Under the pieces are notes generated by a model, which worked only from the letters and a program-made list of their open reading frames with translations, did not search any database and had not been told where the DNA came from. Below are positions 1,664 through 25,335 of a stretch of 64,000 nt of DNA, piece by piece. This stretch comes from a virus. Position 1 is the first letter of the stretch. Each line of letters begins with the position of its first letter. Made by a program: the position numbers and the translations under genes. The DNA is taken from positions 116,706-180,705 of the IMG/VR virus record IMGVR_UViG_3300005466_000024; one strand, 5' to 3'.

Positions 1664-3661
1664 TCAGTCGTTCTCGGCGAACAATCCCGACAGCGCGCGC
1701 ATCAGTTGGGCGGGTACGCAACCGTTCCCGATGATGCGCAGTGCATCGTTGCGGCTGATCGTCCCTGTCGGCCGCTTGCGCGCCGGCAGTAGGTTGACGA
1801 GATCGGTGACCCAGCCGTCGGGCCACCCCATCATCCATTCGGCGAACCGCGCCGATAGCCGCGGGTTGCCCTTGGTGTTGGGTTCGGTGGGTGGTGGTGC
1901 GGGCCGGGTCAGCGCCTCCCAGCGCCGGATCGCTGGTTCGTACTTGCCCCACGCGCTCACCGGTTCGATGCCCAGGTCGATCAGCTGCACGTTGTGGTGC
2001 CAGTTCTCGCCACTGGTCTTGCGGTTGCGATTGGGCCCGCCACCATTGCCGTCGGAGGCCGCCGGGGTGGGCAGCAGCACGTCGTCGGACTGCGTCGGCA
2101 GCAGCAGGTCGGGGCGACTGGCACCGGGCACCTCGTCCCAGGACTCGAACTCGCGGGGCAGCTCGCCGCGCGCGATCTCCAGCGCCTGCTCGAGACCTGG
2201 TGCCGACCACTGTCGGTAGTCCACCATGGCCTTGCGCGACGCCCGGTTGGTGGCCGCCTTCGGGGTGGGCAGCAGATTGTCCTGCTCGCCCAGAAGGGTG
2301 GCAACATCAGCCAGACCACTGGCCCCACCCTCGCCACGAGATCGCGTGGTGTTGTCCCATGACACCTTCTTGGGGTTGGCACCCTTGAAGTCGTTGGCAT
2401 TGGGCGTAGGCAACAGGTCTGGTTCGGCGATTTCGAGCGCCGCGAGTTGCAGGTCGCCCAGCTGCTCGCGCCGACGGCCGTTGCCGGCGGGTCGGCGGTC
2501 GCGCCAGGCTTCGGCGGTGGTCCCGGTGTAGTTGGTCTGCGGGGTGGGCAGCAGCACCGGATCCTGCGCGGCCAGATCGCGCAGCACCGCGTCGGGCAGC
2601 GTGTCGTCGCATTCGGGACGATCTCGCCCTGTGTTCGCGGCCCCCTTGTGGTCGCGGGCCTGCGGGGTGGGCAGTAGTCGCAGTGCATCGGTCAGCGACG
2701 TGCCGGGGTGCATGACGCCGGTGTCGGTGCTGTGCCGGGCGCTGTCGCGGGCGTCGCTGGTGACTGGCGTCGGCAGCAGCTCTACTACATCGGATTCTCT
2801 GCCTCGTTCGCCATCGCCAGCATCTGTACTTCCTTGCCCAGGTTCCGGGCATGCCCATTCCCCGTCGTAGGTTGTGTCGTCGGGGTCGGCAGCAGCTCCC
2901 CGCCCGTTTCCAGTAGATCGTTCTCCACCAGCACCGCCAGGTCCGTCACCCGTTTGCGGCCCGGTTTCTTGGCCAGGTGATTCTCCGGGGTGTTGTTGTC
3001 CGGCTGCGCGCACACCGTGGGCAAGAGTAGATCCTTCTCCGGCGGCGTCTCGGACGGCGTCGCGGACGACGTGCCAGCCGAGGGTTTGCGGCCACGCGAG
3101 GGCGAAGACCCTTTCGCGTTTGTGCGGCGCACCGGCTGCGGACGCGGGTACAGTAGCCCAGCGCGCATCGTACCCGAGGTTGGCCAGGTCGCCGAATACG
3201 GCTCCGGCTGCTCGCAGGACGGCGTCGGGGGCTTCCACCACAGCTGGGTCTCCCGATCCCAGATCGCGGTGGGCTTTCGCGGAGAGGAGTCCCCGCACGT
3301 TTTCGATGCAGACAAGGAGCGGCTCCAGTTCTTTGATCGCAATGGCCATGGCTACCCATAGGCCCGAACGGGTGGCCTCGCCTTTTTCGTTGGGGCCGAT
3401 GCCCAGCCTGCGCCCGGCGGCCGATACATCCTGGCACGGGAATCCTCCGCAGAGAATGTCCACGGGTTCCACTTCGGCCCAATTCACCTGGGTGATATCG
3501 CCGAGGTTGGGGATGTCGGGCCAGTGTTTGGCCAGTACGACCGAGGCGGCCGGATCGCTCTCGCACTGCCACATGAGCTGGCCACCGAAGAATGCTTCGA
3601 CCCCCTGGTCGAGCCCGCCCCCACCGGAGAACACGGACCCGATGCGCAGCGCGTCACCCAT
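1664..3661 (-). CDS. C5 DNA cytosine methyltransferase with repeat-expanded variable region
   Basis: Motifs FSGGGG, GGFPCQD, ENV, RERVF, GNGCVP; six LLPTP repeats. Confidence 0.9.
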   Translation of the reverse strand: MGDALRIGSVFSGGGGLDQGVEAFFGGQLMWQCESDPAASVVLAKHWPDIPNLGDITQVNWAEVEPVDILCGGFPCQDVSAAGRRLGIGPNEKGEATRSGLWVAMAIAIKELEPLLVCIENVRGLLSAKAHRDLGSGDPAVVEAPDAVLRAAGAVFGDLANLGYDARWATVPASAAGAPHKRERVFALAWPQTLGWHVVRDAVRDAAGEGSTLAHGVRAAGQQHPGESPGQETGPQTGDGPGGAGGERSTGNGRGAAADPDDTTYDGEWACPEPGQGSTDAGDGERGRESDVVELLPTPVTSDARDSARHSTDTGVMHPGTSLTDALRLLPTPQARDHKGAANTGRDRPECDDTLPDAVLRDLAAQDPVLLPTPQTNYTGTTAEAWRDRRPAGNGRRREQLGDLQLAALEIAEPDLLPTPNANDFKGANPKKVSWDNTTRSRGEGGASGLADVATLLGEQDNLLPTPKAATNRASRKAMVDYRQWSAPGLEQALEIARGELPREFESWDEVPGASRPDLLLPTQSDDVLLPTPAASDGNGGGPNRNRKTSGENWHHNVQLIDLGIEPVSAWGKYEPAIRRWEALTRPAPPPTEPNTKGNPRLSARFAEWMMGWPDGWVTDLVNLLPARKRPTGTISRNDALRIIGNGCVPAQLMRALSGLFAEND

Positions 3662-4325: not shown

Positions 4326-4944
4326 CCTGCACAATCCGTACTGGGACGAGGTTGGGCACGCGGCCAGGCCCGGTGAATTCCCCTGGGAGCACCACCAGTT
4401 GGAGATCGCCCGCTTCCGGTCCGATTCCGGTGAGGAGTACCTGGACCGGCAGAAGTTCGTCGGCCGGTACTCCTGGACGGTCACCGACCCCGACAGTGTG
4501 CAGTTCGTGGCTGATCACGTGGTGGGCGGCGTCGTGGATCCGATGGCGGGTACCGGCTACTGGGCCTACCTGCTGGGGCAGCTGGGTATCACGGTGGTGT
4601 GCTACGACCTGCACGCCGACTGCGACAATCCGTGGCACGGGGATCACTCGCATTGGGTGCCGGTGCAGCCCATGGACGGCGCGGAGTCGGTAGTTCTACA
4701 CCCGGACAAGACCCTGCTGCTGGCGTGGCCCCCGTACAGCGACCCGGCCGGGGCTCGCATCCTCGATGCCTACCGCGGGAACCGTGTCATCTACCTCGGG
4801 GAGTTCGATGGCTGTTGCGGCGACGACGCCATGCACGAGGCGCTGGCAAGCGGGTGGGAGGAGGTCGCGTCGATCAGGCCGGTGCTGTGGTGGGGGCTGC
4901 ACGACCGGATCACGGTGTTCGTGCGAAAGCCCACCGGGGAATGA
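4318..4944 (+). CDS. class I SAM-dependent methyltransferase-like protein
   Basis: VVDPMAGTGYWA and LLLAWPPY motifs. Confidence 0.7.
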   Translation: MADLHNPYWDEVGHAARPGEFPWEHHQLEIARFRSDSGEEYLDRQKFVGRYSWTVTDPDSVQFVADHVVGGVVDPMAGTGYWAYLLGQLGITVVCYDLHADCDNPWHGDHSHWVPVQPMDGAESVVLHPDKTLLLAWPPYSDPAGARILDAYRGNRVIYLGEFDGCCGDDAMHEALASGWEEVASIRPVLWWGLHDRITVFVRKPTGE

Positions 4945-5005
4945 TTTACTCAACCCTGGGCGTCATGCTTGTCCTGTAGCACCATTATTGGGTACGTTCC
5001 CTCGC

Positions 5006-6094
5006 ATGCGGACTCTACTTGCTGTTGCCACACTGTCGGGCGCGATGACCGCCGTGGCGTCCACGTCGGTGGCACTGGCGGCCACCGTCCTCACCGTGAG
5101 CGGCAGCACGTTGCTCGTAAGCACGCCCATGGAGCACGAACTGCAGGGCGCCCTGTGTCGGGCGCCCAACACCTGCGAGAAGGTCGACTACCCGGCGGGC
5201 GGGATCGGTCAGGGCCCCCTGGACCAGGGTGAAGTGGCACTGCAGGACAAGATCGCCGCCACTTCCGGGGATAAGATCGTGATGGCGTACTCCCAGGGCG
5301 GGATCATCGCGACCCAGTGGCTCGAGCAGCACGCCGGCCAACCCGACGCACCACCGGCGAGCGATCTCACGTTCGTGCTGTTCGGCAACCCGCAGCGCGC
5401 CGAAGGAGGGTTGGGCCCCGCGAGCGGTGGGGGACGATCGAACACCCCGACCCCCACCGATACGCCGTACTCGATCGTCGATGTCAGCCGGCAGTACGAT
5501 CTCCTGTCCGACTGGCCCACGGACCCCACCAACGGGCTGGCGGTCGCGAACGCGCTTGCGGGCTACCTCTTCGTCCACACCGACTACACCGGTGTGGACG
5601 TCAATTCGCCGGACAACCTCGTGAAGAAGGTCGGCAACACGACCTACGTACTGGCCCCCACCGCGAACCTGCCGCTTCTGGAGCCACTGCGGCGGGTCGG
5701 TCTGGGCGGTGCGGCCGATGCGCTCAATGCACCGCTGAAGAAGGTGGTGGACGCCGGCTACGACCGCTCGGGGTACGCGCCACTGACTTCGCCCGTACTG
5801 CCGACCGGCAGTGCGGAGACGAGCGTCGCGGCAGTGTCACCAAGGACACCCACTGCCGCATCCGGCATTCACACCGGGTTGACCAAACTCGGTGAAGCCG
5901 CGATTGGAGCGCGCCCGCGCCGTCACCTCAATGCCCAGGTGACGGGGGGCGCTGCACGTCGTGACGTTGCCACGCCACCATCGAACGGCAAGCGCGCCCA
6001 CGCAGCGGATGGCGCCCCGGTGAAGGCGGCGGTGCGATCCATCGCGCACGCCCTGTCGAAGCGACAGGGCGGGTCGTTACAGCGGAAGGGCTGA
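5006..6094 (+). CDS. secreted PE-PPE domain (cutinase-like serine hydrolase) protein
   Basis: Signal peptide; AYSQGG, FGNP, QYD..SDWP, VHTDY; likely leaderless start. Confidence 0.85.
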   Translation: MRTLLAVATLSGAMTAVASTSVALAATVLTVSGSTLLVSTPMEHELQGALCRAPNTCEKVDYPAGGIGQGPLDQGEVALQDKIAATSGDKIVMAYSQGGIIATQWLEQHAGQPDAPPASDLTFVLFGNPQRAEGGLGPASGGGRSNTPTPTDTPYSIVDVSRQYDLLSDWPTDPTNGLAVANALAGYLFVHTDYTGVDVNSPDNLVKKVGNTTYVLAPTANLPLLEPLRRVGLGGAADALNAPLKKVVDAGYDRSGYAPLTSPVLPTGSAETSVAAVSPRTPTAASGIHTGLTKLGEAAIGARPRRHLNAQVTGGAARRDVATPPSNGKRAHAADGAPVKAAVRSIAHALSKRQGGSLQRKG

Positions 6095-6244
6095 CAATTC
6101 GCTCAGCGTCACGTCGACCACTTGGGTGTGTTGGGCGTCGTCGCTGAACGGATACTCCGTGAGCAGCGCAGCGGCCTCCTTCTCCGAGGAGGCCTCCACC
6201 CGTGTCACCCCTGCCGTGCACCAGTGGACGTCGTATTCAGCCAT
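6077..6244 (-). CDS. small hypothetical protein
   Basis: 55-aa ORF from MAEYDV. Confidence 0.5.
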   Translation of the reverse strand: MAEYDVHWCTAGVTRVEASSEKEAAALLTEYPFSDDAQHTQVVDVTLSELSALPL

Positions 6245-6255
6245 GATCCCTACCC

Positions 6256-6648
6256 TCAGCCGATTATTTTCTTCCGCGGCTCCTCGGTCCTGGTGCCGTC
6301 CTCTCGGATGACACCCTTGACCCCGTCCGCCAGGCCCTCTCGGACCTCCCACTGGATTCGATCATGGTCTTGCTCGGTTTGGTGCACGACACGCCCGGTC
6401 ACCGTCACCTCGGGGATGAACAACCCGGTGGGGCGCCCGTTCTGGTAGACCTGGTCGATCCCGACATCGACGGTGAACCCGGCCTCACCGAACAAGTCGG
6501 CCGCCGCGCGCAGGAAGCAGTCCAGGTTCGTGTCGGTCAGGGGGGTGTTGGCGAACCGTCTGGAGAGCTGTTCGTAGGCATGCCTGAGCCGGGGCAGTTC
6601 GCTGGGATAGGGTTCTGTGTCCGGCACCGGACTGGGGACGTGCGCCAC
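6256..6648 (-). CDS. hypothetical protein
   Basis: 130-aa ORF, purine-rich RBS before GTG. Confidence 0.7.
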   Translation of the reverse strand: MAHVPSPVPDTEPYPSELPRLRHAYEQLSRRFANTPLTDTNLDCFLRAAADLFGEAGFTVDVGIDQVYQNGRPTGLFIPEVTVTGRVVHQTEQDHDRIQWEVREGLADGVKGVIREDGTRTEEPRKKIIG

Positions 6649-10065: not shown

Positions 10066-12612
10066 TCACACCCACTCCAGCAGTGTGTAGCCAGGACCAC
10101 CGGCGCCGCCCTGGCCGGCCGGACCGGACACGTTGCCGCGGGCGCCACCGCCACCGCCACCGCCGCCGTAGTTGCCGCCGACTCCACCGGGACCGGGCGC
10201 TGTGGAGCCGCTTGTGGCACTGCTGCCGTGACCACCGGCACCGTTGAGCCCGGTGGGGGTGCCGCCCGACGCGGTGCCACCCGCGGAGCTGGACGAGAGG
10301 GAGTCGTTGGACTGCACGTCGCCGCCGCCGCCGCCGCCGGCCCCGGCGCCGACCGTGTTGGAGGCTCCGGTGCTGCCCGAGCCGGCGGAGCCGTTGGCCA
10401 GGATCATGCCGGTGATGCCCGATTGGCTGGCAGTGCCTCCGGTCGTGCCACTGCCCCCACCTGCGGTGAGTGTGATGCCGCCGGAGGTGACGGTGCTGGC
10501 TGCGCCGCTGGTGGTGCCACGGGTGACGCTGTACGTCGCCCCCAGGCTGCTCACGTCGATGAAGCTGCGGCCGACGCGGGCGCCGCCACCTCCTCCGGAA
10601 CCACCGTGACGCAAACCGGAGTTGCCCGCCGCGCCGTTGCCGCCGCTGGCACCGGCGCCGAGCAGGGTAACCCAGACACCGCTGGCCCCCTGCGGGACGG
10701 GCTGGTTGGTCCGGTTGAGGTTCTCCTCGTTGAAGGGAGCGAAGGTGACCTTGGTGGCGGTGGCCGACAGGATACCCTGCCCACCGAGGCGGGCCCCGAA
10801 CATGAAGGCCAGAAGGTAGAAGGGGCCGCGCACGACGCAACGCCCGCTCAGCGGCGCGGTGAGGACGAACTTGTTCGCCACGGCGGTGGCCGACAGGGTG
10901 CCGGTGCCCAGTGTGGCGCCGTTCAGCCGCAGGCTGGCGCTCAGGGTGCCGCGCCCGCCCAGGGCACTGGTGCGGGCGTACCGGGCGAACGCGGCGACGC
11001 TGGGGGTGCCGCGCCCGCCCATCGCGGCCACCGAATTGATCCGGTACATGCGGGCGACCGCGGTCGATGCCCCGTTACCCTGCAGGGTCGCCGACAGTTG
11101 CGGTACCGGTTTGGCGGTGACGGTGCCACGCCCGCTGATCGGTGTGGCCACGGTGAACCTGGTGGCTTTCGCGATGACGGACACGGTGCCGCGCCCAGGG
11201 AACGCGACGGTGGTCCTGACCCCGGCCAGCCAGAACAGGGTGCCGCGCCCGCTCAGCGGCGCCGTGAAGGTGAACTTGGTGGCGGCCCTGGTCACGGTGA
11301 GCCGCCCGGTTCCCCGCACCGCGGGGAAGGTGCGCAGCTGGAAGATGGTCGCGGTCGCCCGCAGCGCCCCGGTGGCCCTCAACGGGACGGCCATCAGGAA
11401 CTTGCTGGACTGGGCTGTCGCGGTGAGCTGGCCGCGACCGAACGGCACCAGGGCACGAAAGTAACCGGCCCGTCCGGACACCGCCAGGCTCAGGGGTGTC
11501 GCGAGTGAGACGGTGCCGATGGCGGGGGTGGGCCGCGCAAGGGCCGCGACCATCCAGGTGTTCCAGGTGTTGACGAGTTTCGTGGTGCCGGCGCCGGTTT
11601 TGACCGAGGTCACCCAGCAGATGGCGGCGGCGTTGCCCCAGAGCAGCTGCGGGGACGCGACCAGGGCCTGCTGGAATTGCAGGGTGCCACCGAGATAGGA
11701 TCCGTCGCCGACCGAACCCAGGGGGATGGTGGCGGGCGACGGTGGCGGGCTGGTGGCCGGGGTCCACGCCGTGCCGGGGCCGGTCTTGGTCCAGACCACG
11801 CCGGTGCGGGTCGCTCCGTCGGCCACCACCGTGGCCAGGAACTCCCGGGTGGTGTAGGTGGCGTGGCTGACCGGTCCGGCGCTGGTGAGTATCCCGGCCG
11901 TGGTGCGGACCGGGGCGAGGTCGGTGGGGTCGGTGCTCCATCCCGCTGTGCTGCCGTAGCTCCAGGTCGGGTCGGACAGGTGGCTGTCGCCGCCGGTGGC
12001 GGTGTTGGTGCCGACCGCGTGCCACAGTTTGCGAGCCAGGTACACCTGACCGTCGACGTCGGTGCCGGCGACGACCAGGTGCGGGGTGTCGATCCACACC
12101 CCGGCCCCGAACAGCACACCACCCGGGTTCGGCAGGGTTTCCTCGCCGGTGATGGTGAACGGTTTGGCCGGTGCGGTGGCGATCATGGTGAGCACCGCTA
12201 CGGCCGTGTCGTCGGTGGTCAGGGTGTAGAGGTAGTTGGTGGCGCGGCTGGCCGCGCCGACCAGTCGCCGGACGCCGGGGGTGTTGGTGGGCAGCGCGTA
12301 CCCGGCCCCGATGGTGCGCGTACCCCCGGGGGTGCTCACCAGCACCCAGCCGGGGGTGGTGTCCTCGCTGTGGGCGCTGTAGGCGCCGGGGTCGGTGCCC
12401 GAGCAGGTGGGGGCGTACCAGCGCCGGGAGAACACCATCACGAAGGTGGTAGGGGTGAGCGGGTGGAAGTGCACGGGTTGCGCGGCGGCCAACCCGGCCA
12501 GGTTCCACAGACTGCCCAGCGTGGGGTCGGCGACGCTGCGCACACTGCTGGCCGCCGAGATCCCCGCGATGTCCACTGCGGCGGCGGGGGTTTGGACCGG
12601 AGTCGTGCGCAC
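10066..12612 (-). CDS. putative minor tail/tail-fibre protein with GRGT repeats and Gly-rich C-terminal domain
   Basis: About 12 xxGRGTL-like repeats; Gly-rich domain ending GYTLLEWV. Confidence 0.7.
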   Translation of the reverse strand: MRTTPVQTPAAAVDIAGISAASSVRSVADPTLGSLWNLAGLAAAQPVHFHPLTPTTFVMVFSRRWYAPTCSGTDPGAYSAHSEDTTPGWVLVSTPGGTRTIGAGYALPTNTPGVRRLVGAASRATNYLYTLTTDDTAVAVLTMIATAPAKPFTITGEETLPNPGGVLFGAGVWIDTPHLVVAGTDVDGQVYLARKLWHAVGTNTATGGDSHLSDPTWSYGSTAGWSTDPTDLAPVRTTAGILTSAGPVSHATYTTREFLATVVADGATRTGVVWTKTGPGTAWTPATSPPPSPATIPLGSVGDGSYLGGTLQFQQALVASPQLLWGNAAAICWVTSVKTGAGTTKLVNTWNTWMVAALARPTPAIGTVSLATPLSLAVSGRAGYFRALVPFGRGQLTATAQSSKFLMAVPLRATGALRATATIFQLRTFPAVRGTGRLTVTRAATKFTFTAPLSGRGTLFWLAGVRTTVAFPGRGTVSVIAKATRFTVATPISGRGTVTAKPVPQLSATLQGNGASTAVARMYRINSVAAMGGRGTPSVAAFARYARTSALGGRGTLSASLRLNGATLGTGTLSATAVANKFVLTAPLSGRCVVRGPFYLLAFMFGARLGGQGILSATATKVTFAPFNEENLNRTNQPVPQGASGVWVTLLGAGASGGNGAAGNSGLRHGGSGGGGGARVGRSFIDVSSLGATYSVTRGTTSGAASTVTSGGITLTAGGGSGTTGGTASQSGITGMILANGSAGSGSTGASNTVGAGAGGGGGGDVQSNDSLSSSSAGGTASGGTPTGLNGAGGHGSSATSGSTAPGPGGVGGNYGGGGGGGGARGNVSGPAGQGGAGGPGYTLLEWV

Positions 12613-12673: not shown

Positions 12674-12958
12674 CTACTCCTCCGGTGTGGGATACGGCAC
12701 TGTGGCGGGATCCTCCCGCACGTACAGGCCTTCGCACGTTTCGGTGCCGCAGTAACAGCAGCGTTCCGTCTGCCGGTGCTCCTCACGCAGCAGGTGGGGC
12801 TTCAGGCTGGGGTTGCGTACGGCGTAGCACGTCAGGCAGGCCGGCTGGGTCCAGGAGTAGTGCTGCTCGTCGGTGCTCCTGACCATGGCCGCTCCTCCCA
12901 CGAGCATGGTGATCGTGTAGACGATGGACTGCAACCACAATGCCACTTCGGTGCTCAC
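12674..12958 (-). CDS. hypothetical membrane protein with Cys motifs
   Basis: N-terminal TM; CxxC pairs. Confidence 0.55.
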   Translation of the reverse strand: MSTEVALWLQSIVYTITMLVGGAAMVRSTDEQHYSWTQPACLTCYAVRNPSLKPHLLREEHRQTERCCYCGTETCEGLYVREDPATVPYPTPEE

Positions 12959-13392
12959 CAGCAACTGGAGTAGCTGGGCGCACAGGTCATCCGGGAGCCG
13001 TCGCCGTTGAGGATGTAGGTGGGCTGCGGTGGCAGCGGTGCGGGAACGACCATGCCGGGGCCGACGTAACTGCCGCACATCCCGTCCGCATCGATCTCGC
13101 AGCTGGGGTCGGCGTGCGCGGACGCCAGTATTCCCAGCGACATCACCAGGACGAACAGCGCCGTCATGAACAACACCAGGGCCAGCACCTGGGCGACGGT
13201 ATTCCACCTCGCGGACCGTTCGATGGCGGATATCTCGTCGTCGTCGCCGAAGCAGGAACGGCACACCGTCCAGCCCAGCTCGGTGTCATCGTCCACATCC
13301 CCGCACAACAGGCAGCATTTCCCCATTTGCCTCCCCCTCGTGTCCCCGTCGTCGCACGTTTCGGGGCGGACGATTTCGGTGTCTTCGCTCAT
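12955..13392 (-). CDS. hypothetical membrane protein
   Basis: CxxC N-terminus, TM helix; start uncertain. Confidence 0.5.
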   Translation of the reverse strand: MSEDTEIVRPETCDDGDTRGRQMGKCCLLCGDVDDDTELGWTVCRSCFGDDDEISAIERSARWNTVAQVLALVLFMTALFVLVMSLGILASAHADPSCEIDADGMCGSYVGPGMVVPAPLPPQPTYILNGDGSRMTCAPSYSSCW

Positions 13393-13699
13393 GGCCACGG
13401 TGCTGGAGTCTAACCTGTCGCCGCGGCTTTGCCGCACCGACAGGCGAGCACCGGCATCCGGATCTCGTTGTTGGGCCGCGACATTCACAGGTGGTGATAC
13501 GTTCATGACGCTGAGGGGAGAGCCGGGCCGCTATGGGGGGAGTAGCGGCCCGGCCCGGTTCGGAGTTCCAGAGGGGTACCCGGAACGCCCTGGCCGAAAC
13601 CGGTCCGGCCACTTCGACGGTACCGGTTCTGCTCGGAACTATCCCAACCGGCGATGGCAGCGGTAGGGTCCCTACAGGGCCACTACAGGAAGCGGGACG

Positions 13700-13945
13700 A
13701 TGACCGTCATCGATGAAACAACCCTGTCCAGTATTCACATCCTTGATCACAGCGGCGATTTGGAGCACAAATGGGATCCAGGTGATCCCGACAGTGTGAG
13801 CATCGCCAGGGAGGTCTTCGCAAAGGCACAGAAGAAGAAGATGCTGATCTACAAGGTAGGTCGACAAGGTGATCGGGAACAGATCCGGGAATTCGATCCG
13901 GAAGCCAAGCACATCGTGGCGATACCGCAACTTCAGGGCGGCTGA
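13700..13945 (+). CDS. small protein ending in di-glycine (candidate ubiquitin-like modifier)
   Basis: 81 aa, C-terminus IPQLQGG; AGGAAG RBS. Confidence 0.75.
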   Translation: MTVIDETTLSSIHILDHSGDLEHKWDPGDPDSVSIAREVFAKAQKKKMLIYKVGRQGDREQIREFDPEAKHIVAIPQLQGG

Positions 13946-13946
13946 A

Positions 13947-14618
13947 TTGCCTTTGACATACTGGCGCGATTGGTCGGCTGACGACGATCACCACGACTGG
14001 TCCTATCGCTGGGACGGCCATACCGCCACCGGCAGCAGCACCACTCTCGCGACCAGCGAGTATGTGGGCACACCCTGGCAGATGTGGACCAGTGCGACGA
14101 CCTCGACCGGCGGATGGCATTACCTGTACTACACCGCATCACCGATCTACACCGAAAGGCCACTGGTAAGGATGGGTGCTGCTGGTGAAGCGGCGGTGGT
14201 GTTGGCGCCCCCCGAGGTCGAGGTGTCCGCAGCGGTGGAGGATCTACGGGCCGCACGGCTCGCACGAGCGCTCGCACGGTCCGAGTCGCAAGTCGTCGCC
14301 GAGTCGCGGGCCGTCGATCTCCTGGTGCGGATGCTGCCGCCGGAGCAGGTGGAGGTCTATCGGCGGGAGGGGCACTTCGACATCGTCGGTAGCCACGGCA
14401 CCCGTTACCGCATCAGGCCCGGCACGGTGGGCAATGTGGCGTGGCTGGACGCCGAGGGTCGGCAGGGTGGCCTGCTGTGCGCGCACCCGGCCTCCTCCCA
14501 TGGCCTGCCCACCCCCGATGTGCACCTGGCGCAGATGTTGGTGCTGCAAACCGATGAGCGGGAGTTCCTGCGGATCGCCAACCTGCACGCCGGTGTTATG
14601 CCGCCATTGGTGGCCTGA
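13947..14618 (+). CDS. hypothetical protein with LCAHP motif, coupled to the GG protein
   Basis: TTG start 1 nt after upstream stop; Thr/Trp-rich N-terminus; LAQMLVLQTDEREFLRIAN. Confidence 0.75.
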   Translation: MPLTYWRDWSADDDHHDWSYRWDGHTATGSSTTLATSEYVGTPWQMWTSATTSTGGWHYLYYTASPIYTERPLVRMGAAGEAAVVLAPPEVEVSAAVEDLRAARLARALARSESQVVAESRAVDLLVRMLPPEQVEVYRREGHFDIVGSHGTRYRIRPGTVGNVAWLDAEGRQGGLLCAHPASSHGLPTPDVHLAQMLVLQTDEREFLRIANLHAGVMPPLVA

Positions 14619-14806: not shown

Positions 14807-15088
14807 TCACTGTTCGTCCAGTTCCCGGAGTTTGCGCCATAGGGCCAGCACCAGCTCGTCGCCGACCATGTTGCGCAGGTAGCACTCCAGGTGCCAGGCC
14901 TCCAGCAGTGCGGACACGCCGCGCTCGAAGGTGACAACGGGTATGAGCATGCCCCGGTCGGTGTCCTGGATCGGTTCGAGACAGCTGGCGCAGGTGTCGC
15001 CGACCGGGGTCGGCAGGTGGCGGCCCTCCTCGTTGACGGGTGCACTCCATGGCTGCCCGAACCAACCGCCCGGATATTCGTCGTTCAT
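14807..15088 (-). CDS. hypothetical protein
   Basis: 93 aa; CxxC and HxxC. Confidence 0.6.
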   Translation of the reverse strand: MNDEYPGGWFGQPWSAPVNEEGRHLPTPVGDTCASCLEPIQDTDRGMLIPVVTFERGVSALLEAWHLECYLRNMVGDELVLALWRKLRELDEQ

Positions 15089-15454: not shown

Positions 15455-17335
15455 TCACGTCGCCTCCGATTTGTGCAGCGCGGCGCGCAGCCGTGCGCCG
15501 ATCCACTCACCGACGGGCGGCGAGACGGCGTTGCCGAACCCGTCGGTCTGTTTGCGTGCCGACCCCCAGACGACGAACGAACCCCGGTAGTCGACGAAGT
15601 CGACGTCGAATCCGCAGCCGCGACCGATCTCGTGGGCCGACATCATGCGGAAGTAGCAGTCCTCGAGAGTGAGCTCGGCGAGCAGCGCGTGCCATTCGGC
15701 GATCAGCGGCGCAAGGATGCCGCCGTCGTACCAGCCGGAGAACAACACGCCCTGCGTGACGGCGGATCCGACGACGGTGCCCAGCGGCTTGTCCAGCGGG
15801 TAGCTGCGGTATCCGGCCTCGTCGATCGAGCCGTTGCACTGCACCCTGCCGGCCGCGGTGAGCACGCCGGGGATCTGGTCGCTGGTCACCGTCGGCATCG
15901 CCTCGCCATGCGTGGTGGGCACGGTGTTGCGCCGGAATGGCACGACGCCCGACGACAACACACCCAGACCGCCGGACCCCGCGTTGCCGACGATGGTCTC
16001 CATCGGCTCGCCAAGGCTGCGGCTGGTGCCATTGGTCCGGTTCGGCAGCACCCGCGCCGACAGCATGCCCAACGTCTCCGACCCGCCCTGCGTCGGCAGC
16101 GGATCGTCGGCGCCGCGCGGCGCGCCCTGGTAGTTGTCGATGGCTAGAGCCACTGGCGGGGTGATCAGGCCAGTGGTGTTGGAGGTGGGCTGGGTCCACA
16201 GCGGTTGGGCAAGGTCACGTGTGCGGCATTCGGAGCCGGGGTGCTCGAAGCTGTTGGCCATCTGCATGATCGCCCCGGTGGACAGGATGGCGGTCTCCTG
16301 CTGGCTGGTCTGGGTGGCCATCGGCTGCCAAGGGTGGCGCTCGGTGCCGTGCAGGGCCTTGGCGGGCATCAGGACGGCCGGGAAATCGGCGAACCGTTGG
16401 CGGCACCGTTCCGCTCGCGCCATCGTGGTCGCCGCGAGCGGTTTCCTCCGATCCCCGATCCGGGTGCCCAGATCCGTCAGGTCCAGCGCAGCCAGCGACG
16501 GCGTCATCGGTGGCGCCACTACGCCCCGGCAGGACGGACAGCGATATGAGTACTGCTTGCCGTAGCGCACCGAACCGGTGGGCGGCACCCCGGTCTTCCA
16601 CGTCCACACTGCCTCGATGACCTTGTCGCATCGCGGGCACCACGACGGCGGGCGGTGATCCAGGTCCGGTGTCGGGATCCGCCGATCCCACATGGCGATG
16701 TACAGCCGGTCCCGCGACTGCGGCACCCCGAAGAACATCGAGTTCAGGTACAGGACGCGATACTTGTAGCCCAGTGTCTCGAACTGCCTGAGCCACCACC
16801 GGTAGGTGCTACCGTCTCCAACCTTGCGCTTGCCTTGGATGGCTGGCCCCCAGGAGGTCAGTTCGGTGGTGCACTCGACCAGGATCAGTCGGGGATGGTG
16901 CTGTGCGGCGTAGGCGAGCACGCAGGACGCGGTGGCGCGGTCGCGTTCGGATCGGGTGACGCTGGCCTCGAAATCCGGGTCGTCCAGGTCGAACAGCGAC
17001 AGCCCCTGCTCGTACGCCTTTTTGGTGTTGGCGAGGCTGTGGTTCTTGCACGAAACTCCTGCCGCCAGCAGGTCTGCCGGCGGCAGGTCGCGGACCGAAT
17101 GGTAGGCCAGGGATTCGCGGTCGACCAGGTCGGCGATCCAGTGTTCCGCCTCGGGATGGTTGGCCTCGTGGATCGCGATCTTGTATTCGTTGTGGTTCGC
17201 CGCGCAGATGGTCTCGAACCCGGCACGTTTGATGCCGGTGGTCAAACCACCGAACCCGGAGAACAGGTCGACCGCGACGAGATCGTCGTGTTTGAAGCGG
17301 CGTCGTTTCACCGCGGGCCGGTACGTGGCGCTCAT
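15455..17335 (-). CDS. C5 DNA cytosine methyltransferase, atypical motifs
   Basis: DLFSGFGG, AGVSCKNHS, VECTTE, PQSRDR, GNAVSP; six P(L/M)xT repeats. Confidence 0.85.
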   Translation of the reverse strand: MSATYRPAVKRRRFKHDDLVAVDLFSGFGGLTTGIKRAGFETICAANHNEYKIAIHEANHPEAEHWIADLVDRESLAYHSVRDLPPADLLAAGVSCKNHSLANTKKAYEQGLSLFDLDDPDFEASVTRSERDRATASCVLAYAAQHHPRLILVECTTELTSWGPAIQGKRKVGDGSTYRWWLRQFETLGYKYRVLYLNSMFFGVPQSRDRLYIAMWDRRIPTPDLDHRPPSWCPRCDKVIEAVWTWKTGVPPTGSVRYGKQYSYRCPSCRGVVAPPMTPSLAALDLTDLGTRIGDRRKPLAATTMARAERCRQRFADFPAVLMPAKALHGTERHPWQPMATQTSQQETAILSTGAIMQMANSFEHPGSECRTRDLAQPLWTQPTSNTTGLITPPVALAIDNYQGAPRGADDPLPTQGGSETLGMLSARVLPNRTNGTSRSLGEPMETIVGNAGSGGLGVLSSGVVPFRRNTVPTTHGEAMPTVTSDQIPGVLTAAGRVQCNGSIDEAGYRSYPLDKPLGTVVGSAVTQGVLFSGWYDGGILAPLIAEWHALLAELTLEDCYFRMMSAHEIGRGCGFDVDFVDYRGSFVVWGSARKQTDGFGNAVSPPVGEWIGARLRAALHKSEAT

Positions 17336-18030
17336 ACCAGCCCCCGCTTGAGTCGTCGGCGTTCCTGCTCGGATAATCCGGCCCAAACACCGAACCGCTC
17401 ATCGTGGGCCAAGGCGAACTCCAGGCAGTCGTCGCGCACCGTGCATCGCAGGCAGATGCGTTTGGCCTCACGGGTCGAGCCGCCCTTTTCTGGGAAGAAG
17501 ACCTCGGGGTCGGTCTCGGCGCACAGGGCCTCGTCGCGCCAGCTCTCCACCTCGTTCAGCGCGAAGGGGCCGTCGAGGAAGGTCAGCGTCCGCTGCCCGG
17601 TGGCGAGTGGGCCGAACTTCAGATCCTCCCGTCGCTCCCGTTCGCACGATTCTGCTGCCGCTGCCAGGTCGGCGAGTGCCGCCGCATTGGTGCGGCGGGT
17701 GGCCCACCCGTCCTGCCGGTACTGCTGCCGGGTGGCGGGGTCGATGCCGCAGATGGCGTGCGCCGTCGTGGCGGTGATGACCTGGCGGCCGGCCAGGATG
17801 TGTGTGATCACCGATCGGTGGACGTGCGCGGCGCGGGCGATTTCCCGGTACTTCCAGCCCGCCCCGACCAATAGGATGATCGTCCTACGGACAGGGGCAA
17901 CGTCGATGACGCGTGGTGCGATCTTGCCCTGCCTGCGGTCCCTCTCGTAGTCCGCATGACACAGGCCGCGGCGCAGGGGCTTCTCCGCGCGACCACACCG
18001 CACGCATCGTTCCCCCGATGCCCTCACCAT
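17332..18030 (-). CDS. whiB: WhiB2-like regulator fused to N-terminal Zn-finger/HTH
   Basis: ALCAETDPEVFFPEKGGSTREAKRICLRC..CLEFALAHDERFGVWAGLSEQERRRLKR; N-terminal CxxC..CH and HTH. Confidence 0.9.
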   Translation of the reverse strand: MVRASGERCVRCGRAEKPLRRGLCHADYERDRRQGKIAPRVIDVAPVRRTIILLVGAGWKYREIARAAHVHRSVITHILAGRQVITATTAHAICGIDPATRQQYRQDGWATRRTNAAALADLAAAAESCERERREDLKFGPLATGQRTLTFLDGPFALNEVESWRDEALCAETDPEVFFPEKGGSTREAKRICLRCTVRDDCLEFALAHDERFGVWAGLSEQERRRLKRGLV

Positions 18031-18368
18031 TGGGTTGGGTCCGCCAGTGTCCGGGGCCGCTGCCCGAACCAGTGCCGCAGGCTGGCGTACGCCTCCTCGG
18101 CGTCGCCGCCGTTGCCCACCCCGCGCCACACGACGGCGCCGACCTGCGGTGTTCCCGTCTGCTCGTAGTCGGTGTAGTTGACCAGCGCGCACCGGCGCGG
18201 GCGTTGGGTGGACTTGGAGAACTTCGCCACGATGCGGTTGCCGGCGCGGCTCCACTCCAGGTCGCCGTCGGCGGTAGCGGTGATCTCCCACCCGTTCTGC
18301 GCGGCCAGTGCCACCAGTTCCACCAGCGGGGTAACGGCCGCAGCGCTCGTCGTCTCGGAAGTGGTCAC
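18024..18368 (-). CDS. hypothetical protein
   Basis: GTG start after AGAAGGGG. Confidence 0.55.
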   Translation of the reverse strand: MTTSETTSAAAVTPLVELVALAAQNGWEITATADGDLEWSRAGNRIVAKFSKSTQRPRRCALVNYTDYEQTGTPQVGAVVWRGVGNGGDAEEAYASLRHWFGQRPRTLADPTQW

Positions 18369-25176: not shown

Positions 25177-25252
25177 GCAGCGGTAGCTCAATCGGTTAGA
25201 GCACCCGGACCGCACACACCGGGGGATGTCCGTTCGACTCGGACCTGCTGCC
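25177..25252 (+). tRNA. tRNA-like gene with non-canonical 10-nt anticodon loop (identity unassignable)
   Basis: 7-bp acceptor GCAGCGG/CTGCTGC, D stem GCTC/GAGC, AC stem CCCGG/CCGGG, T arm GTCCG-TTCGACT-CGGAC; loop ACCGCACACA; no encoded CCA. Confidence 0.75.
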
Positions 25253-25335
25253 CGACCCTGAATCGTGAGCAGTCTTGTAGGCCAACACTCGGTGAACTCA
25301 TCGGTGACAGAGACTGACAGGAGCAAACTGAACCC

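Follow-up and report, generated by a model that had tools for sequence, protein, structure and literature searches.

What is the role, in the phage that carries them, of two adjoining genes of which the first encodes a small protein ending exactly in Gly-Gly and the second a larger protein with a single cysteine? The pair lies in a window of 64,000 nucleotides (the whole stretch of DNA analysed here), which covers positions 116,706 to 180,705, that is the last 64 kb, of the IMG/VR virus record IMGVR_UViG_3300005466_000024, a genome of 180,705 bp and ~65% G+C rated complete by CheckV. Each of the two genes is present as a single copy in this 180-kb phage. A first-pass annotation, made without database searches, had described an 81-aa protein ending in QGG-stop, a 223-aa partner beginning one nucleotide later, a lone Cys within LCAHP and an island of plus-strand coding, and all of these details were found to be correct. 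We show below that the pair is a conserved two-gene module of mobile elements, carried by actinobacterial phages, other uncultured phages and conjugative plasmids of Bradyrhizobium. It may be related to the prokaryotic ubiquitin-like (Ubl) and E2-like systems, as an undescribed minimal protein-tagging module. The first open reading frame (ORF) is called ORF-A and that of the partner ORF-B; their features are as follows.

13700-13945, plus strand: ORF-A, 81-aa small protein ending in PQLQGG-stop, candidate ubiquitin-like tag (reading-frame analysis and homologues)
13937-13942, plus strand: codons GGC GGC of Gly80-Gly81, with the TGA stop directly after, at 13943-13945
13947-14618, plus strand: ORF-B, 223-aa partner with a TTG start, one base (13946) after the ORF-A stop
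13947-14228, plus strand: partner residues 1-94, N-terminal region rich in Trp and Thr, of a length that varies by lineage; predicted local distance difference test score (pLDDT) 42-65
14229-14615, plus strand: partner residues 95-223, conserved domain with a UBC/RWD-like predicted fold; pLDDT 94-98, 144 sequences
14478-14480, plus strand: codon TGC of Cys178, the only Cys of the partner, in LCAHP at the end of strand 4; conserved in homologues
13507-13699, no strand assigned: divergent intergenic region of 193 bp upstream of the pair, with a Shine-Dalgarno-like AGGAAG motif ~10 nt before the ORF-A ATG

The frame of ORF-B stays open back to a GTG at 13869. Homologues of the partner begin with M-P-x-x-x-W-x-D-W right after the stop of the small gene, and the window protein aligns with them from its TTG. 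Because close homologues start just past the small-gene stop, the TTG at 13947 was taken as the start of ORF-B, and the two genes are, to judge from this arrangement, translationally coupled. A scan of the region upstream of ORF-A gave no sigma-70-type promoter match, and neither the promoter and terminator scan nor RNA folding of the downstream spacer produced anything exceeding background. The composition of ORF-A differs from that of its surroundings: its G+C content at third codon positions (GC3) is 0.63, against 0.79-0.86 for the neighbouring genes, and its overall G+C is ~53% in a 65% G+C genome. This low G+C reflects either a compositional constraint or a more recent acquisition. Composition alone is no proof that ORF-A is a gene; it is the conservation of its homologues that vouches for it.

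A word-indexed search with a six-sequence profile returned 667 clusters matching the small protein, nearly all of them 74-76 aa long. The terminal GG, on which the first-pass annotation had built its suggestion of a tag, proved to be the exact end of every homologue retrieved (121/121: 115 VGG, 5 QGG and 1 TGG), the commonest ending being PQ(T/L)VGG. Seven positions are invariant in an alignment of 119 sequences, G19, D20, W25, A36, D66 and the final G80 and G81. ORF-A has no Lys or Arg close to its tail. The GG end is also kept in the diverged copies found at loci L002-L006, L008, L010, L014, L016, L018 and L020. In a single protein, such an end could be fortuitous; shared by the 121 homologues and by the copies at every intact locus examined, it is not due to chance. 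The best explanation is that ORF-A function needs a free C-terminal Gly-Gly.

The association between the two genes is equally constant. In all 10 of the independent loci initially gathered from phages or metagenomes (the window, L002-L006, L007/L009, L008, L010 and L011), whether found via the partner or via the small protein, the small gene immediately precedes the partner in the same orientation. Usually the two are separated by 1-3 nt or overlap in ATGA. Locus L014, beside an integrase, has the same arrangement. The partner domain was then matched by tblastn in 13 Bradyrhizobium plasmids of PLSDB, mostly conjugative megaplasmids. Intact pairs are present on p195_1 (WP_247973535.1 and WP_346732911.1), on p172_1 and on pUSDA123-1 of B. 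japonicum USDA 123 (WLC03347.1 and WLC03346.1), each consisting of a 73-aa protein ending in P(R/H)LVGG followed by a 137-141-aa partner devoid of N-terminal extension. Altogether, the pair is adjacent and in the same order at all the intact loci examined, 11 from phages or metagenomes and 3 from Bradyrhizobium plasmids. Four decayed copies were found besides. On the plasmid side, the small gene is frameshifted in L017, the order is reversed and the end is VVG in L019, and L021 consists of fragments only. The fourth, L013, is on an element that also encodes a resolvase and an integrase; here a small-gene remnant lacking both the N-terminus and the GG end (3060-3332) lies 1.4 kb upstream of a 611-aa ORF (4760-6595) that contains the partner domain; it looks like a decayed version of the module.

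The pair was not found in 50,697 GenBank phage records (INPHARED; blastn and four tblastn queries). Pattern scans recovered 5 IMG/VR loci only, and none in GTDB species genomes, figures that reflect the limits of the pattern method and are not a proof of absence. As the GenBank phage and GTDB scans found none, the two families seem to live mostly in uncultured phages, with the Bradyrhizobium plasmids as an exception. The statement, in the first-pass annotation, that such a pair occurs in environmental phages with no described function was correct, and plasmids have to be added to its range.

The partner belongs to a large family. A three-sequence profile, searched exhaustively with HMMER, gave 5706 representatives at E<=0.001; 2648 of these remain at E<=1e-10 and 81 at E<=1e-30. 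The 1e-10 figure is to be preferred, as the weakest matches may reflect the Ala/Arg-rich helix. Cys178 is invariant in alignments of 40 and of 144 homologues, and it is kept in the distant Bradyrhizobium branch as well. Conservation among homologues, the check that the first-pass annotation had proposed for both the GG and the Cys, thus did not refute its reading. N163, P188 and Q196 are also invariant among partner homologues, and H180, P181, D191, D203, E204 and N212 are conserved in at least 90% of them. When the actinophage-type, lower-G+C phage and plasmid branches are aligned with HMM guidance, Cys178, Asp191, Gln196 and Glu204 are retained, together with the G-x-x-G-x-x-Y of the first strands. 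The N-terminal region varies widely, from none at all in forms of 137-147 aa up to ~340 aa, and possibly serves as a target-selecting or adaptor module.

The conserved domain (residues 95-223) was modelled by AlphaFold2 with the 144 sequences at the high pLDDT listed above. Its elements, assigned with DSSP, are two helices (95-129 and 132-141), four strands (144-147, 153-156, 164-167 and 173-178), a loop, two more helices (189-202 and 204-210) and a final strand. The loop comprises ten residues of somewhat lower confidence and begins at Cys178, which is placed at the junction between strand 4 and the loop. The model follows the UBC order, that is a helix, an antiparallel meander of four strands, a loop and two helices. 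It was compared exhaustively with 48,161 representative chains using VIA-align. The top match was the RWD domain 2daw (Z 5.0, root-mean-square deviation 4.0, 106 residues aligned) and the second one Ubc9 (4y1l_C, Z 4.9, root-mean-square deviation 3.0, 84 residues), the best Z of 5.0 lying within the range below 8 where, as the program warns, a match can mean a common arrangement only. Further matches were the GCN2 RWD, RWDD1, VPS37A, the UEV domains of Tsg101 and Vps23, UBE2E1, UBE2F, UbcH5b and FANCL, and the bacterial CBASS E2 8hsb_B was among them at Z 3.0. RWD, E2, UEV and FANCL chains made up about half of the top 30 rows. A Foldseek search of BFVD returned three unnamed phage proteins, one of them from Agrobacterium phage Atu_ph07, and a structure search of the ESM Atlas gave a TM score of 0.79 to hypothetical proteobacterial proteins of 145 aa. 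According to the model, the partner domain likely belongs to the UBC (E2/RWD/UEV) fold class.

For the small protein, the fold was approached by covariation. A mean-field analysis of 116 gap-poor sequences (effective number 69) yielded a single robust non-local signal, the antiparallel pairing of strands 50-55 and 70-74 in a ladder, where the pairs 50-74, 54-70, 54-71, 55-70 and 55-71 each appeared in at least 37 of 40 bootstraps, with a weaker pair 50-62. In the beta-grasp fold, the third strand pairs with the last one, with an excursion in between. The ladder is compatible with the beta-grasp 5-3-4 strand order and, given the low alignment depth, is supportive only. The size of ORF-A, the spacing of its elements and the tail of 4-5 residues after a hydrophobic last segment resemble ubiquitin, and we infer from these features that a beta-grasp fold may be adopted. 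The nearest named cluster in the ESM Atlas was ThiS, at a score of 0.76 which is at chance level.

How could the two proteins work together? Because of the strict coupling, the unchanging GG, the UBC-like domain with its single unchanging Cys, and an N-terminus that varies, we tentatively read the pair as a Ubl-like tag and a divergent E2-like carrier, with a conjugation-type mechanism depending on a host E1; we hold this for a serious possibility, short of probable. The partner domain would bind the small protein and its GG tail. The carboxylate of the tail would be activated by an adenylating enzyme of the E1 type provided by the host, and the tail would then be passed to Cys178 as a thioester and from there to a target; which target this is would depend on the variable N-terminal region of the partner. 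Enzymes of the MoeB/MoeZ/ThiF type adenylate the GG-ended proteins MoaD, ThiS and CysO. A free carboxylate has to be activated and the element provides no E1, so that a host enzyme of this type would be the most economical activator, a link which is drawn by analogy. Binding, host activation, thioester and any target would thus be successive steps of a proposed pathway. The first-pass annotation had hesitated between an E2-like and a protease partner. Its first alternative fits the E2/RWD-like topology and the best matches to RWD, E2 and UEV chains, at weak Z; its second one is weaker, since the His is lost in the plasmid branch. A cysteine protease with C-x-H as its active site was accordingly rejected as the main model, given that His is replaced by Val in that branch while Cys stays, which argues against a Cys-His dyad. 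Loss of the His is compatible with E2-type chemistry, which needs no such residue. The further suggestion of the first-pass annotation, that the pair possibly counters defences of the Bil or CBASS type, gained no support.

A number of results weigh against the tag-and-carrier reading, and they concern the missing enzymes, the motif around the cysteine and the fold assignments. ThiF/E1 (PF00899) was absent from the complete 180-kb phage, in a search whose control was detected in 14/14 known genomes, and so was Prok-JAB, with a control detected in 11/14. JAB and UQ_con (PF00179) were absent as well from the 180-kb phage, in searches whose controls were detected in only 2/14 and 1/14 genomes. Nor was ThiF found in four further viral records with the pair, of which two are complete. 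The earlier remark that no E1/ThiF is present in the window thus extends to the complete 180-kb phage and to these four records. No gene of the E1, JAB or UQ_con type is annotated within 5 kb of the pair on the Bradyrhizobium plasmids. As the element has no E1, the free carboxylate is left with no encoded route of activation. Next, a canonical E2 has its Cys ~8-10 residues after an HPN motif; the partner has no HPN upstream of the Cys, which instead stands two residues before H-P. Even this C-A-H-P varies, to C-F-V-P in Bradyrhizobium, C-I-H-H in L008 and C-V-H-S in L010, so that His and Pro are not universal.

Finally, homology searches gave little to support the two folds. Neither protein matches Pfam, PHROGs, NCBIfam, PADLOC or any PDB sequence. 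For the small protein and five homologues, no Ubl family (ubiquitin, ThiS, Prok_Ub and others) was found in Pfam at E values up to 1. Profile searches of PDB sequences gave chance hits only. For the partner, no Pfam match was obtained with 40 members at E<=0.01, nor with 7 isolated domains at E<=10. Besides the weak Z values mentioned above, a Foldseek search of the partner model against the PDB returned noise only, with no match. The AlphaFold2 model of ORF-A, computed from three sequences, had a pLDDT of 55, which is of low confidence. It contains a hairpin of strands 10-16 and 19-25, a helix 30-45 and a strand 49-53, the C-terminal third being unmodelled, and a fold search with it gave generic alpha/beta designs and zero beta-grasp, the model being too poor for this outcome to count against the fold.

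Among the known systems closest to the pair are Bil (BilABCD), type II CBASS with Cap2/Cap3 and the E1-E2-JAB-Ubl operons (PMC10557695, PMC1779556). Like the pair, these combine a small Gly-ended Ubl with an E2-fold protein having a conserved Cys, and they are carried on mobile or conflict-related DNA. However, all of them encode an E1-like enzyme, and usually a JAB peptidase, whereas the phage with the pair has neither; their sequence models, including those of PADLOC, are matched by neither protein of the pair; and operons of the Bil and CBASS type are located in host defence islands, when the pair is on phages and plasmids. Regarding the position of the cysteine, some prokaryotic E2-like domains have a conserved Cys replacing the His of HPN, and others have a His C-terminal to the Cys (Iyer et al. 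2006, PMC1779556, Table 1 rows 6c, 6d). The Bub pathways (PMC11601596) are likewise diverged bacterial Ubl/E2-like modules found via gene context, with a non-canonical active-site chemistry. They differ from the pair by having an E1 and a peptidase, and by passing through oxyester (Ser) intermediates, while the pair family has an invariant Cys and no E1.

The boldest reading compatible with the results would be a self-contained two-protein tagging system. The tag would be loaded on the Cys by a hijacked host MoeB, MoeZ or ThiF, or by some novel chemistry, and the partner would be E2 and E3 in one, its N-terminus selecting host or phage targets. A relevant precedent is the E2-only CBASS (Serratia CdnG-E2; bioRxiv 10.1101/2022.05.25.493364; PDB 8hsb), in which an E2-fold protein works without E1. 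This E2 grips the C-terminal tail of its own partner at the catalytic Cys, and it gains energy by cleaving the residues after the cGAS Gly, acting both as a cysteine protease and as a transpeptidase (bioRxiv 10.1101/2022.05.25.493364). Such a route is impossible for the pair, because none of the homologues of the small protein has residues beyond the GG that could be cleaved; the CBASS substrate is moreover a 40-kDa enzyme, against a tag of 75 aa here. We regard a self-contained system as doubtful.

An unlikely explanation, in our view, is that of a non-covalent decoy or inhibitor. The RWD/UEV-like domain would merely bind the GG-tailed protein, or the small protein would mimic a host MoaD, ThiS or CysO, or the Ubl of a defence system, and jam a host E1 or E2 (Bil, CBASS Cap2, MoeZ), the Cys being structural or redox-sensing. 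The lack of an encoded E1 or deconjugating peptidase and the displacement of the Cys from the canonical E2 position both speak for such an inhibitor, and so does the setting of the pair, whose neighbours (WhiB, DNA methylases and the like) are phage genes of early or accessory type. The best structural matches, too, are to non-catalytic domains. UEV domains bind ubiquitin non-covalently. The RWD and UEV domains (2daw, GCN2 RWD, Tsg101 UEV) share with the partner the helix, the four-strand meander, a proline-containing loop and the two helices; they are, however, devoid of a catalytic Cys, eukaryotic and without sequence relationship to the partner, and the Z values are only 3.2-5.0. Two points speak against a decoy. 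The lone Cys is unchanging across thousands of clusters and two phyla while the neighbouring His and Pro drift, which is unusual for a purely structural residue, and a decoy has no obvious need for a dedicated partner at every locus.

An addiction module of the toxin-antitoxin type, in which the small upstream protein would neutralise a toxic downstream protein and thereby stabilise plasmids or prophages, is improbable. It would account for a small gene followed by a larger, translationally coupled one, for the copies beside integrases, and for the several copies per Bradyrhizobium megaplasmid, some of them decaying, by insertion sequence elements and a plasmid stabilization gene. However, neither protein matches a toxin-antitoxin, defence or toxin family (Pfam, NCBIfam, PADLOC), and an invariant GG at the extreme C-terminus together with an invariant Cys in a UBC-like fold is foreign to known toxins and antitoxins. 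An N-terminal extension of 0 to ~340 aa is also atypical for a toxin, and the pair is found in large, apparently lytic phages as well.

Still a little less credible is a sulfur relay, where the small protein would be a carrier of the MoaD/ThiS type, thiocarboxylated by host enzymes, and the Cys of the partner would carry a persulfide or take up the sulfur, to be used in a thio-modification directed by the phage. Bacterial sulfur carriers as a rule have a GG end and no E2/E3 cascade dedicated to it (PMC1779556), and the single invariant Cys and the weak lead to ThiS in the ESM Atlas point the same way. Yet no ThiS or MoaD model matches, no rhodanese, MoaE/ThiG-type or thiolation enzyme adjoins the pair at any of the loci examined, and the fold class of the partner is UBC-like, not that of a sulfurtransferase. 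MoaD, ThiS, CysO and the Ubl of lambda tail assembly protein I (TAPI) are small proteins with a conserved Gly-Gly or Gly at the C-terminus, as in ORF-A, and one of them, TAPI, is likewise encoded by a phage (PMC1779556); none of them has a sequence match to ORF-A. Their partners are E1, MoaE or ThiG, or, in tail operons, JAB/NlpC peptidases, as opposed to the UBC-like partner of ORF-A, which is outside the tail module. A tail Ubl of the TAPI type was rejected for the same reasons, the pair having no JAB/NlpC partner and lying outside the tail module. A Pup-like protein was rejected as well: Pup ends in GGQ or GGE and is disordered, whereas in the present family GG is the very end and strands and a helix are predicted.

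We turn to the surroundings of the pair, of which the main features are listed here.

10066-12612, minus strand: 848-aa protein with an extremely Gly-rich C-terminal region; weak, sub-cut-off Gly_rich_2 match
1664-3661 and 15455-17386, minus strand: two homologues of C5 cytosine DNA methyltransferases, of 665 and 643 aa and both within one arm of the phage, in which only the N-terminal parts match the methylase model
17332-18291, minus strand: 319-aa ORF with an HTH_31/HTH_3 region and a C-terminal WhiB domain, overlapping the end of the methylase ORF
4766-6094, plus strand: PE-PPE-domain protein, possibly an esterase of the LysB type
58081-59124, plus strand: EspA/EspE-like protein, below the Pfam cut-off
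60851-61888, plus strand: NlpC/P60 peptidase

The neighbours of the pair at 10066-12612, 12955-13506, 14807-15088, 15455-17386 and 17332-18291 are all on the minus strand and have a coding-type GC3, so that the pair is a plus-strand island. The 848-aa Gly-rich protein is probably tail-fibre-like. Given its overlap with the methylase ORF, the true start of the helix-turn-helix-WhiB ORF may be further downstream. The PE-PPE, EspA/EspE-like and NlpC/P60 genes, as predicted, point to a host in Mycobacteriales, and one homologue of the small protein is annotated from a metagenome-assembled genome of Mycobacterium sp. Elsewhere in the window, a strong match (E 5e-95) to DUF5131, a family of unknown function, was noted at 51576-52475 (plus strand). 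A tRNA-like gene of undetermined identity was called by ARAGORN at 25177-25253 (plus strand), with gcac as a four-base anticodon, and may represent either a spurious prediction or a tRNA of the frameshift-suppressor kind.

Our literature searches found no paper describing a two-gene, E1-less module made of a GG-ended small protein and an E2-like partner. Bacterial ubiquitin-type conjugation is a recent discovery; to our knowledge, the cases described so far are host defences, an E1 being present in each of them. Should the pair indeed tag proteins, such a system would also exist on the phage and plasmid side of the conflict, reduced to two small proteins, and would depend either on an activating enzyme of the host or on new chemistry. 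It would then be a viral counterpart to the bacterial Bil, CBASS and Bub conjugation machineries, and would bear on the origin of E2 enzymes and on the manipulation of host proteins by phages. The copies present on Bradyrhizobium plasmids such as pUSDA123-1 offer a cultured system in which the two families can be tested.

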